Origin: an uncultured Rhodospirillaceae bacterium
GTDB lineage: Bacteria; Pseudomonadota; Alphaproteobacteria; RF32; CAG-239
Length of the DNA: 26,933 bases
Reading direction: 5' to 3'
Assembly (NCBI GenBank): GCA_900313185.1
Contig: OMQI01000037.1
Coordinates: forward strand, 1-26,933
This document shows, in pieces, positions 15,856 through 24,359 of the stretch. The first letter of the stretch is position 1. Each line of letters opens with the position of its first letter. Position numbers and translations under genes: made by a program. Below the pieces are notes generated by a model, which saw nothing but the letters and a program-made list of their open reading frames with translations, searched no databases and had not been told where the DNA came from.

Positions 15856-16809
15856 ATGAGTGAAAATAACGGAACCAACGTAAGTGAAGGTATTGATGAT
15901 TTTGAGGCACTGCTCAACAGTTTCATCAATACCAAAGTTGAAGATTTTGAAGACGATGATGAGCAAAAAAAAGAAGAAAAAGCTCCCGCTGTTATCGATG
16001 AAACTCATTTAAGTGAACAAGGACAAGCGGAAAACGAAGAAGCATCACGTCTGTTTGAAGAAGAATTGGCTTCAACCTTTGCCGAAGCCAGAAATGCCAT
16101 CGAAGAAGAAGAAAACAAGCCTACTTTGGGTTCAGACGAATCGGAATTGGCGCAAGCTTTCGTAAATTATCAGGCATCTGTACAAAAATTGAGCCAAACT
16201 TACTTAAACAGAGACTTTGAGTGCACTTTTAAAATCGATGACTTGTATCCTAACTACAAACCAAGTTTAGGGAGCTATATATCCGCCGACTTAATTAACG
16301 GTTGGATGATTTTATCTGAAATTTTCCCTAATGATGTCGGACGTTTTCCGGTATCGTCAACTGATGAAGAATTTTTGAACTTTGCCGAAACTTTGCAGAA
16401 TCAAGATTTGCAACTTGCCGTAATATCTTATGTGGAAATCTTAATTGATATGGAAAGCTGTGAATTAACTTATATGGCAAAATTGGCAAAATATCAGGAA
16501 AAACATATCAAAAAAATTATGTATGAAGAATATGTGGCAAGAAAAGAAAGACAACAAAAATTTACTGAAGCCGTTAAAAAGAAAAATTTTCCGATAGATG
16601 CTGAAAAGCTTATCAGTAACTATTTCAGAGTTGCTCAAAAAGATATAGATGGTGCTTATAAGGCACTAACCACTAATCCGGCAATTTTTGCACCGATTGA
16701 TTTTGGCAAAATTAAACCACGGTTCTTCGGTCTGGTTAAAGTTTCGCCAAAAGACGGGATTCGAGTTAATCTGGAAATTGGCAAATTTATGAAAAAACTA
16801 AAGGCTTAA
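15856..16809 (+). CDS. Hypothetical protein: acidic N-terminus, basic C-terminus, possible BID-like C-terminal domain
   Basis: Open frame of about 317 aa with AAAGGA RBS before ATG 15856. No confident family; domain call is inference. Confidence 0.7.
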   Translation: MSENNGTNVSEGIDDFEALLNSFINTKVEDFEDDDEQKKEEKAPAVIDETHLSEQGQAENEEASRLFEEELASTFAEARNAIEEEENKPTLGSDESELAQAFVNYQASVQKLSQTYLNRDFECTFKIDDLYPNYKPSLGSYISADLINGWMILSEIFPNDVGRFPVSSTDEEFLNFAETLQNQDLQLAVISYVEILIDMESCELTYMAKLAKYQEKHIKKIMYEEYVARKERQQKFTEAVKKKNFPIDAEKLISNYFRVAQKDIDGAYKALTTNPAIFAPIDFGKIKPRFFGLVKVSPKDGIRVNLEIGKFMKKLKA

Positions 16810-16825
16810 AGCGGAAAAATAGTTA

Positions 16826-16854
16826 TAGACAAAAAAGATTTTATGTGATATATT
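16826..16854 (+). promoter_or_regulatory. Sigma-70-type promoter for the large ORF
   Basis: TAGACA-N17-TATATT with TG at the extended -10 position; AAGGAG RBS at 16874-16879. Confidence 0.5.
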
Positions 16855-22130: not shown

Positions 22131-22142
22131 TGAGGAATTGAT

Positions 22143-24359
22143 ATGACAAAAGAACGCGGTGAAGAATGGAAAGAATATGACAAAGCCGTCAGATGGATGA
22201 CTATTACATTTTTTATATGTTTGGCTCTGGCAATCGTGTTATTTATTTTTGCAATGCCTTTGTCATATTTAGTACGCCACGGCATTTCAAAAAACTCGAT
22301 GGATATGGTCAGTAAATTTTTGGATGTTATCATCAAAAATCCGGATCATATATTCAATCTCTATAGTAAATGGGGAAAAACCGTATTTAATTACCGAGGA
22401 GATTTTGCTTTATGGTTATGGATTCCTTTGTTGCCATTCATAACTATTCCGGTAGGATTAATTATCAGTGCCCTATTCAGCCCTTATAAATTCCAAATAA
22501 ATTATCAAGGTCAAGCTAAGATTGCCGACTTGCGTGATATTAAGAAAATGTCACTTTTGGGCTTTGACGGTTTCTGCCAAGTTTTAGGAAAGTTTGACGG
22601 CAAATTTTTAATGCTGAAAGAAACGTTAGCTACTCTGTGCTGCGCACCTCCTGGTACCGGTAAAACAGCCGGGGTGGTTATTCCGACAATTTTCAATTCG
22701 GATAAGCTGAGTATTATCGTAAACGACCCTAAACCGGAACTTTGTTACAGTACATCAGGTGCTCGTGCTAAAGTCGGTCCGGTGTTTATTATTAACTGGG
22801 GTGCCGAAGATAATCCGAGTGAAGGTATTTATTATCCGAGTTGGAATCCGCTTTCTCCGAATTGCATTCCGGAGCAAGGGCCGGATCGTGATATGTATGT
22901 CGATTCTATGTGCAATATTCTGGTTGAGGATCCGAAAGGCGGTGCCGATCCGCACTGGTCACAAACCGGCCGTGCCGCACTTACCGGATTTATTCAATTT
23001 GTGGTATCAAAATGCGACAGAGCCAGAGCAAACGACTATTTCATCGGCCGTATCTATGAAGGTAAACTTGATGAAAAAGACAAAGAAGTTTTGGAAGGTT
23101 ATTATATGGATATGCGTGATCCGGGAACGGCACGTGCAATTCAAAACCTTAAAAACGGTACTTTGACTATGGAAAACTATTTGCCGATCGGAACATGGAA
23201 CCTGCTTCCGTCACGTTGGATGGGCAGAGAGGCTTGTATTGCAATGATTATGGAATGGATTACCGAAGCGCAAATTAATGCCGCTCAGGAAATTCAACGA
23301 CGCCTTGACGAAGGTGACCAAATGGCGGCTATGGCAGATCCGACACACGATATGTTGGAAGAAGCTATTAAAGAAGCCCGTAATTTCGGTTATGCACAAC
23401 GCTGTATTACTGAGCTCAGCACCTTAAGCAATACACCGGATAAAGAGCGTGGTTCCATTCTTTCCACCGCTTTTGCCGGTATTAACGTGTTCAAAAACCA
23501 AGCCGTAAAAGCAAGAACCAGCTTTTCCGATTTGCAATTCAAGGATTTGCGCGGTATGAAAGATCCGGTAACCGGAGAATGGAAACCGATTTCGGTTTAT
23601 TTGTCAGTTAACCAAGTTGATGCCCGTGCATTGGGCGTTATCAGCAGTACATTTATTGAGCTGATGTCTTCGTATCTTATTTCCAATCCGCCTAACCACG
23701 TAAACCGTACCGATGGTAAAATGGGGCCGTTCCCTGCCTTATTCATCTTGGACGAGTTCCCGCAAATGCCTAAAATGAAAGCTATTATTGATGGTCCGGC
23801 CGTAGGTCGTGGTCAAAAAGTTTCTTACCTGTTAATCGGACAAGATTTAGGGCAAATATCCGGTAAGTACGGAAAAGATGACTTGGAAACCGTGATTTCC
23901 ACCACCGCCTGCAAAGTTATTTTATCACAAAACAATGAGGTTACAGCTCAACGTTTCTCTAAAATGATTGGCAACAAAACCGTTCAGATGTCATCTTTCT
24001 CCCGTACAGAAGGAAGCTTGGGTAAAGACTTTAACCCTCTGGCGAAAAACGTTAACTATCAATTACAGGGAATTCCGGTTATCAGCTCGACTCAATTATT
24101 GAGCTTGCCGATGCTTAAACAGGTTGTTTTGATGCAAAGCTATATTGATCGTCCGATTATGGCGGATTCGCCTCGTTGGTACTTAGATAAGAAAATGCGT
24201 AAATTGGCCTCAATTCCACCTTGTCCGAACGTTCCGGATTGGATTGTAGCCCAACGTGAAGATATTAACGATGATATGCTTGCCAAACTCGGTATTGAAT
24301 ATAATGCCGAGGAAGAAAGTGATGATAACTTTGAAGTGGATGAAGGTACCACTGCCTAG
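22143..24359 (+). CDS. virD4: Type IV secretion coupling protein (VirD4/TraG family)
   Basis: Two N-terminal TMs, GQAKIA, Walker A APPGTGKTAGVVIP, IVNDPKPEL, SWNPL, DPHW, Walker B LFILDEFPQM, GRGQK...IGQDLGQI..KYG. Acidic C-tail, GAGGA RBS. Confidence 0.92.
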   Translation: MTKERGEEWKEYDKAVRWMTITFFICLALAIVLFIFAMPLSYLVRHGISKNSMDMVSKFLDVIIKNPDHIFNLYSKWGKTVFNYRGDFALWLWIPLLPFITIPVGLIISALFSPYKFQINYQGQAKIADLRDIKKMSLLGFDGFCQVLGKFDGKFLMLKETLATLCCAPPGTGKTAGVVIPTIFNSDKLSIIVNDPKPELCYSTSGARAKVGPVFIINWGAEDNPSEGIYYPSWNPLSPNCIPEQGPDRDMYVDSMCNILVEDPKGGADPHWSQTGRAALTGFIQFVVSKCDRARANDYFIGRIYEGKLDEKDKEVLEGYYMDMRDPGTARAIQNLKNGTLTMENYLPIGTWNLLPSRWMGREACIAMIMEWITEAQINAAQEIQRRLDEGDQMAAMADPTHDMLEEAIKEARNFGYAQRCITELSTLSNTPDKERGSILSTAFAGINVFKNQAVKARTSFSDLQFKDLRGMKDPVTGEWKPISVYLSVNQVDARALGVISSTFIELMSSYLISNPPNHVNRTDGKMGPFPALFILDEFPQMPKMKAIIDGPAVGRGQKVSYLLIGQDLGQISGKYGKDDLETVISTTACKVILSQNNEVTAQRFSKMIGNKTVQMSSFSRTEGSLGKDFNPLAKNVNYQLQGIPVISSTQLLSLPMLKQVVLMQSYIDRPIMADSPRWYLDKKMRKLASIPPCPNVPDWIVAQREDINDDMLAKLGIEYNAEEESDDNFEVDEGTTA

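Follow-up and report, generated by a model that had tools for sequence, protein, structure and literature searches.

A putative coupling-protein operon of a scattered VirB/VirD4 type IV secretion system in uncultured gut Alphaproteobacteria

Contig OMQI01000037.1 of an uncultured Rhodospirillaceae bacterium was analyzed here in full as a window of 26.9 kb (26,933 nucleotides; C115 in our numbering), which belongs to a 1.30-Mb metagenome-assembled genome (MAG) of 195 contigs with an estimated completeness of 74%. Between the housekeeping loci rluD/rpoH and dnaE the listing of open reading frames (ORFs) places five genes, all on the + strand and all in one direction, which we refer to as A, B, C, D and VirD4; they extend across 15856-24359 and end in a strong terminator, as the original prediction had described. 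We propose that this operon is probably the coupling-protein islet of a type IV secretion system (T4SS) of the VirB/VirD4 (P-type) class that is scattered over the chromosome and vertically inherited in small-genome Alphaproteobacteria of gut and rumen. The ORF of gene A is open from 15835, and an alignment with 33 homologues places its conserved start at M8, that is, at nucleotide 15856. The stop codon of B and the start codon of C overlap in the sequence ATGA, and only 12 nt separate the end of D from the start of VirD4.

VirD4 (738 aa, 22143-24359, + strand) is a type IV coupling protein (T4CP) with two transmembrane (TM) helices, a Walker A/B ATPase and an acidic C-terminal tail. It scored 196 bits against Pfam PF02534 (cut-off 20.1) and 77 bits against PF12696, and also matched PF10412, while hydropathy located the segments of its N-terminal membrane anchor at aa 14-48 and 88-115. 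The Walker motifs had been predicted to be intact and they are unvarying in 36 species (Walker A, APPGTGKT, aa 168-175; Walker B, LDEF, aa 535-538). All curated NCBIfam equivalogs remained far under their cut-offs (146 vs 250 bits for the CD1115 family and 121 vs 728 bits for PRK13897), and neither the single sequence nor an 18-sequence profile found a match among PDB chains at E 0.01. VirD4 is an intact but divergent T4CP subfamily, and its gene is the sole PF02534 gene in the MAG, at the completeness given above. A second, very divergent VirD4 paralogue (32-42% identity, ORFs of up to ~1015-1026 aa) forms a separate deep clade and occurs in many related genomes and genera of the order, not in the genus of the window; examples are G316:C16:23254-25338, G501:C12, G288:C27, G236:C36 and G545:C23.

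The gene that precedes VirD4 codes for D (486 aa, 20670-22130, + strand), in which three regions can be distinguished. An N-terminal, Trp-rich membrane hairpin (aa 1-106, 20670-20987) was delimited with an AlphaFold2 (AF2) model and the alignment: the model contains helices at residues 2-33, 40-51, 59-84 and 87-106 with a predicted local distance difference test (pLDDT) of 78-88, hydropathy reveals two TM segments, and the unvarying residues include W17, E23, R26, N32, W33, D36, H42, W43 and K60-E61-W62-A63-F64. It is followed by a disordered acidic/basic linker (aa 111-321, 20988-21632, pLDDT <50) in which the motifs KKKSYKxIRP and HxLFKFDDDxDDDFDxDIDSFE are conserved and the remainder varies in length. 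The C-terminal domain (21633-22130), modelled as an alpha/beta fold with a pLDDT of 80-92, appears restriction-endonuclease-like (NERD-like), and its signature GDWLADEExFNxEEPLWFSExSHRxSPV does not vary within the clade. Its score against the Pfam NERD family (PF08378) was 17.9 bits, with an E of 0.0045 and under the threshold of 22.1; the top Foldseek matches, at E values from 5e-3 to 0.1, are all of the PD-(D/E)xK type, and the first 16 of them have E values from 5e-3 to 3.5e-2 and low TM scores, obtained with the whole 486-aa model as the query.

C (162 aa, 20093-20581, + strand) is an inner-membrane hairpin protein with two TM segments and a short charged tail. Congruently with the earlier description of two paralogous TM-hairpin proteins, C and D are paralogous over their first ~98 residues (aa 1-98, BLASTP E 2e-9). 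In some other families VirD4 is preceded by a tandem of two full-length D-like genes (G316:C3:108311-110612, G267:C153:19095-21408 and others), so that C is probably a truncated duplicate of D.

A (15856-16809, + strand) is an acidic soluble protein of 317 aa, or 324 aa if counted from an upstream TTG. An N-terminal acidic-hydrophobic motif, DDFExLLxxFI, and a variable acidic linker precede a conserved, all-helical C-terminal domain (aa ~100-324), for which the AF2 model shows a pLDDT of ~95; unvarying blocks stand out in the alignment of 34 species. We found 422 homologues of A, all of them unnamed proteins of Alphaproteobacteria. Fold searches with A (Foldseek PDB, VIA and ESM Atlas) recovered only generic helical bundles, with Z <=9.3 over aa 95-217, and no BID entry appeared among its Foldseek or VIA matches; nothing in the analysis supported a BID-like A. 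B (1069 aa, 16887-20096, + strand) is acidic too and evolves fast, with a basic C-terminal tail: its positional orthologues measure 427-1069 aa, are 23-70% identical and share across genera only one conserved block at aa ~654-717. Residues 1-376 of B (16887-18014) form an N-terminal extension that only the window copy possesses: the closest relative, with a VirD4 of 98% identity, lacks it, and searches of the remaining genome and of related loci brought up nothing similar. Neither A nor B nor C matched any Pfam or NCBIfam family, feature searches for A and B in the Protein Atlas returned no usable match, and none of the six proteins tested had a match in PADLOC or PHROGs.

A and B had been singled out as acidic proteins with basic C-termini. 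The charges support this for both (pI of 4.7 for A and 5.2 for B; net charge of the last 35 residues of +8 and +9, respectively), and +9 is reached by only 1.2% of the ORFs of at least 250 aa in the same genome. The tail itself is another matter for A, as the AF2 model places its basic C-terminus within the confidently folded, conserved domain and not in a free tail; being conserved and folded, A looks more like a component than like a substrate. Among the orthologues of B, which are not independent of each other, 62 of 63 have a net positive charge over the last 35 residues, vs 50% of the long ORFs of the window's genome.

The original prediction had called VirD4 'lone' and had placed the VirB channel that it would feed elsewhere in the genome. 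VirD4 is indeed the only T4CP of the genome, but 'lone' fits the contig only: the VirB genes lie on other contigs. One of these (C64) carries VirB2, VirB3, VirB4, five unknown proteins and two VirB8, and another (C33) carries three TrbL/VirB6 paralogues, while relatives possess a full VirB2-B11 set. The array of one such relative (G021) consists of four VirB2, an unknown ORF, VirB3, VirB4, six unknowns, two VirB8, VirB9, a beta-flower protein, VirB10 and VirB11. Downstream of its virB11 the opposite strand carries unrelated genes and there is no virD4, which is located 80 kb away on the same contig. No other T4CP was found in the VirB islet of either the window's genome or G021. In genomes of the order in which VirB4 and VirD4 share a contig, 40-175 kb separate them, and the Vir genes are distributed over at least three islets, namely the VirB2-B11 array, the VirB6 paralogues and the A-D-VirD4 operon. 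Nearly every genome of the order has a single VirB4 match; TrbL matches number 3-4, and the islet of G021 holds one VirB9.

Several features of these islets deserve mention on their own. The VirB10 of G021 (L113:8010-12182, 1390-1417 aa) bears multiple beta-flower repeats before its TrbI domain and obtained its best score with the ComB10 model; the 1476-aa protein between VirB9 and VirB10 (L113:3574-8004) contains beta-flower/RHS-YD repeats, and VirB9 ends in a SPOR domain. All three are unusual extras for a P-type channel. The gap between VirB4 and VirB8 on C64 (L004:1796-11926), where VirB5/VirB6 would be expected, is occupied by five proteins of 378-1549 aa with no Pfam match, two of them paralogous over ~210 residues. 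We rejected these as VirB6 candidates: none of them has more than one TM segment or matches TrbL, and the VirB6 paralogues are on C33. Another contig of the same genome (C70, 2.4 kb) encodes a 317-aa T2SSE-type ATPase (L006:1134-2087) beside a small membrane protein, and this ATPase could not be placed as VirB11.

The same operon is found well beyond the window. Related contigs belong to MAGs of the rumen and of the gut of pigs, chickens and humans, which bear the labels Alphaproteobacteria, Rhodospirillaceae or Azospirillaceae; one of them is Candidatus Scatocola faecigallinarum. The order rpoH-rluD / A-B-C-D-VirD4 is kept in 80 related loci as far as the contigs reach, and every related contig that we examined shows the five genes conserved together. 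Identity to the window protein in these loci is highest for VirD4 (73-98%), followed by D (34-87%) and A (34-91%), C (22-81%) and B (23-70%, with the range of lengths given above). Of the 197 high-quality genomes of the order, which is probably RF32 of GTDB and is represented here by 22 genera, 196 have a VirD4 match and 193 a VirB4 match. In the only genome that lacks a VirD4 match (G061), A and B run to the end of the contig, and of the four genomes that gave no VirB4 match two retain VirB10; these absences look like assembly gaps and are uninformative on whether the two genes can occur independently. The mean pairwise distance was 0.20 for VirD4, smaller than that of rpoH (0.26) and rluD (0.34). 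Pairwise distances of A, C and D correlated with those of VirD4 (r 0.91-0.93) more closely than did those of rpoH and rluD (r 0.66-0.72), which is suggestive only, as the relatives are non-independent samples.

We then surveyed 396 high-quality alphaproteobacterial genomes across the class. D-like proteins are present in 17 of them, four from the window's own family and 13 from seven other families, with genome sizes of 0.9-2.5 Mb. All 17 also have a VirD4 of the same subfamily, which stands directly beside D in 12 of the 13 genomes from other families, and all 13 contain an orthologous VirB4 on another contig. The identities of VirD4 and VirB4 to those of the window drop in parallel (63/65%, 59/61%, 56/55% and 45/51%, as examples). 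Nine distant loci, some without detectable A, B or C, likewise have a D-like gene directly upstream of VirD4 (53-67% identity). Taken together, D adjoins VirD4 in 80 of 80 close loci, nine of nine distant loci and 12 of 13 genomes of other families, an invariant adjacency across families that supports D as a putative dedicated membrane partner of VirD4, the role that had been predicted for it. A complex prediction with full-length VirD4 and residues 1-225 of D scored 0.28 against a mark of 0.32, which speaks neither for nor against binding.

A further 14 genomes of the survey have a more distant VirD4 and no D. Two D-less genomes that we examined contain the array virB3-virB4...virB8-virB9-(virB10)-virB11-virD4. 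In a maximum-likelihood tree (LG+C20) all D-adjacent VirD4 proteins form one clade (support 86/82), whose sister group of D-less VirD4 proteins comprises the two shown to be virB11-linked, two from family f71, and that of G534, which has D on another contig; the second paralogues form the outgroup. The only genome of its order in the set (G027) has a VirD4 that touches the end of its contig. Judged by this tree, the VirD4 of the window is orthologous to the virD4 that follows virB11 in sister lineages. The D-VirD4 pairing appears to have arisen once, and the simplest reading would be that the coupling protein of the T4SS itself moved away from virB11 a single time and became joined to D. The 'lone' VirD4 would then serve the VirB channel, for which orthology, together with co-inheritance, is the strongest evidence at hand.

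The surroundings of the operon bear on its origin. Upstream lie rpoH (13811-14707) and rluD (14785-15831), and downstream a 297-aa polytopic membrane protein (24411-25304) and dnaE (25306-26898), all four on the - strand. The short divergent region between rluD and A (15760-15855) is the presumed site of the operon promoter, and rluD probably starts (MSEETIF) ~72 nt inside the listed ORF. At the other end, a terminator-like hairpin on the + strand (24372-24405) has a 15-bp stem followed by a run of T. The remaining genes of the contig are of housekeeping type (an ABC transporter, Tgt, a DnaJ-domain protein, a ParA-like ATPase, GST and a TolC/AcrB/MFP efflux pump). In agreement with the original prediction, a tRNA search and a domain search over the ORFs of the window revealed no tRNA, integrase, relaxase or VirB gene. 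The 297-aa protein has five predicted TM segments and a lysine-rich tail; it is 26-37% identical in relatives and 69% in the closest one. Up to ~5 kb of unrelated genes (MarC, H+-pyrophosphatase, an extracytoplasmic function sigma factor, an ankyrin protein) stand between VirD4 and this gene in relatives.

Genes of the VirD4/TraG type are typical of integrated conjugative elements (ICEs), and the best NCBIfam match of our protein is a conjugative family, albeit far under its cut-off, so that a decaying remnant of such an element had to be considered. We give this next to no probability. The ORFs are intact and the motifs invariant, the same housekeeping flanks recur in dozens of species, the guanine-cytosine content of the operon is inside the range of the whole contig, and no integrase or tRNA site (window) and no relaxase (three families, 41 genomes) was found. 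A VirD4 that is universal in the order, apart from the single miss, and more conserved than rpoH and rluD rules out decay of an ICE. The operon is vertically inherited and is not an ICE remnant. The original prediction had called the module 'domesticated', but domestication from a mobile element is not what our data point to: VirD4 appears to have been passed on vertically and to have been relocated from its place after virB11.

The constant separation of the operon from the VirB genes, whether by 40-175 kb or on other contigs, could also be taken to mean that the five proteins make up a self-contained membrane machine that has abandoned the VirB channel, for example a DNA-translocating or a defence/sensing module made of a repurposed coupling ATPase and a nuclease-fold protein. 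A DNA-translocation or defence module of this kind had been the alternative offered by the original prediction. A VirD4 more conserved than its housekeeping neighbours would agree with such a machine, as would the recurrence of the C-terminal domain of D in proteins typical of defence and signalling. Nevertheless, the PADLOC and PHROGs searches lent it no match, and defence islands vary, while the operon keeps its synteny and is universal throughout the order. Every genome with D and VirD4 keeps an orthologous VirB4 and both proteins diverge in step, the VirB islet is without any other T4CP, and VirD4 retains the full architecture of a T4CP, TM anchor and acidic tail included. These observations render a self-contained machine very improbable, and of the defence alternative there remains the wider company that the domain of D keeps.

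That company became apparent in a profile search over 1.84 billion representatives, which yielded 456 relatives. The domain recurs inside TPR-Roc-COR-TIR giants of ~1500 aa (P0206, P0226) and N-terminally in AAA ATPases (P0268, P0270); the E values of these proteins with the profile of D go down to 4e-35. In 36 species residues D348, D363 and E365 (D348...D363-K364-E365) are unvarying or nearly so, although the lysine of a canonical (D/E)xK is missing; a catalytic variant of PD-(D/E)xK of the D..ExE type is known from BamHI-like enzymes. Restriction-endonuclease-like proteins also occur among relaxases, namely those of the MOBC type. With this fold and this acidic triad, D could nick or bind DNA, and VirD4 could feed that DNA to the VirB channel in a relaxase-independent export or uptake gate, reminiscent of the chromosomal DNA release or competence-type T4SS, with A and B as DNA-processing accessories. 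The ComB10-like score of VirB10 and the failure to find a classical relaxase that would do this job otherwise point the same way. On the other hand, besides the missing lysine, the triad is not kept in the wider domain family, in which the invariant positions belong to the loop WLADE..F..E.PLWFSE.SH..SP and not to a nuclease triad. Moreover, searches of the family libraries recognised no oriT, ParA/ParB-type or other DNA-processing gene in the operon, and multiple ankyrin-repeat genes suit protein effectors better. We regard a DNA gate as improbable.

The nature of the cargo was approached through relaxases and putative effectors. A genome-wide check for relaxases detected none of PF03432, PF08751 and PF03389 in 41 genomes of the genus, a result that covers these three families. 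Ankyrin-repeat genes number at least six in the incomplete 1.3-Mb genome of the window (C9, C82, C87, C90, C167, C171), each of four relatives has 12-15 matches to the Ank_2 domain, and in one relative an ankyrin gene lies just downstream of VirD4. Bacteria acting on eukaryotic cells typically show such an enrichment. Because no relaxase was found and several ankyrin-repeat genes were, protein is the more likely cargo than conjugative DNA, possibly destined for eukaryotic cells; we consider this a lead.

With respect to expression, RNA libraries of bovine and pig gut contain short contigs that match stretches of each of the five genes, many of them with 95-100% identity, and that span the B/C and D/VirD4 junctions. 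This coverage fits expression but is not proof of it, as DNA carry-over is possible. Positions 24339-25400 and parts of B are uncovered, from which we conclude nothing.

In the mechanism that we favor, hexamers of VirD4 at the inner membrane would recruit substrates and pass them to a channel of VirB3/4/6/8/9/10/11. D would be anchored beside VirD4 through its Trp-rich hairpin, with the linker and the nuclease-fold domain held in the cytoplasm, and may act as a clade-specific receptor or gating subunit. C, as a putative truncated paralogue of the membrane part of D, would probably join the same membrane assembly, and A may be a conserved soluble helical component of it, either an adaptor or a chaperone. 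B, which evolves fast and retains a basic tail, qualifies best as a putative co-encoded substrate or diversifying adaptor. A bolder version of this scheme would treat D-VirD4 as a new coupling-complex architecture, in which the tethered nuclease-fold domain, from a family shared with TIR/ROCO and AAA signalling proteins, would sense or process the cargo at the entrance to the ATPase, A-C would complete a five-part gate for a secretion system that is core to a whole order of common but uncultured gut bacteria, and ankyrin-type effectors may be delivered to gut protists or host cells; we hold this version to be doubtful.

Several points weigh against a coupling-protein islet that serves the VirB channel. 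The use of VirD4 by that channel is argued from orthology and co-inheritance, and VirB systems without VirD4 exist, such as Brucella VirB and Bordetella Ptl. A physical multi-subunit coupling complex is a prediction from the genes. The presence of the C-terminal domain of D in defence- or signalling-like TIR/ROCO and AAA proteins means that D could have a role in sensing or DNA cleavage and not in the reception of substrates. Support for the clade of D-adjacent VirD4 proteins is moderate, and in G534 D and VirD4 are on different contigs. VirB9 and VirB10 were not found in the window's own 74%-complete genome; this gap fits the incompleteness of the assembly, and it is not shared by complete relatives, as all five of those tested have VirB9 and VirB10, and VirB4 as well. 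As to the cargo, the absence of relaxases concerns three families, and the ankyrin proteins of the window's genome have no strongly basic tails.

A literature search on RF32/CAG-239 and secretion, and on VirD4 and NERD, retrieved nothing relevant. Our analysis adds the virB11-linked arrangement of the outgroup, the single-clade origin of the D-VirD4 pairing, the class-wide co-occurrence of D, VirD4 and VirB4, and the wider family of the C-terminal domain of D. The hosts are uncultured bacteria with genomes of 1.2-2 Mb, widespread in human, ruminant, pig and chicken guts, and a secretion system that nearly all of their members retain is probably central to their way of life. For the T4SS field, the operon offers a naturally separated coupling module with four unstudied partners and a D-VirD4 linkage that extends across at least eight families. 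The C-terminal domain of D represents an unnamed, widely distributed domain family that merits a description of its own.

Finally, we compared the operon with known systems. VirD4 resembles the P-type VirD4/TraG coupling proteins in its two N-terminal TM helices, Walker A/B ATPase, TraG-D_C region and acidic tail, and departs from them in being unlinked from VirB, preceded by D, placed under the NCBIfam cut-offs and encoded in genomes in which our searches found no relaxase. D resembles the NERD and PD-(D/E)xK proteins by its weak NERD match and by the top fold matches of its C-terminal domain, all of which are PD-(D/E)xK enzymes. Unlike them, it scores below the Pfam threshold, has no canonical ExK, belongs to the WLADE-loop family and is tethered by a hairpin beside a T4CP.

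The rvh T4SS of the Rickettsiales has its vir genes in five vertically inherited islets, with virD4 in islet C right after virB11 (Gillespie et al. 2009, PMC2653234). Both are chromosomal, vertically inherited P-type systems that are broken into islets in small-genome Alphaproteobacteria, and both combine a duplicated VirB8 and several VirB6 with a lack of conjugation genes. In contrast with rvh, however, virD4 occupies here its own islet together with A-D and does not follow virB11. While rvh has duplicated VirB4 and VirB9 and five VirB6, the present system has a VirB4 that is single-copy nearly everywhere, one VirB9 and 3-4 TrbL; its array in G021 contains four VirB2, a VirB10 of ~1400 aa with beta-flower repeats and a 1476-aa beta-flower/YD protein, and its hosts, MAGs from gut and rumen, are assigned to the Rhodospirillales and not to the Rickettsiales. 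Since rvh is defined by a virD4 located after virB11, by duplicated VirB4 and VirB9 and by its Rickettsiales hosts, the system described here is not a member of it.

In the Dot/Icm system of Legionella the coupling protein DotL works with DotM, DotN, IcmS/W and LvgA, and such partners of a T4CP widen the recognition of substrates. The idea of a T4CP with dedicated membrane-anchored and soluble partners is common to both systems, although the assembly proposed here is deduced from the genes, A-D share no detectable sequence or fold similarity with the Dot/Icm components, and the channel is of the VirB type (IVA) and not IVB. A, B, C and D are candidates for how IVA-type coupling proteins may gain substrate receptors, which so far are best known from the unrelated Dot/Icm system.

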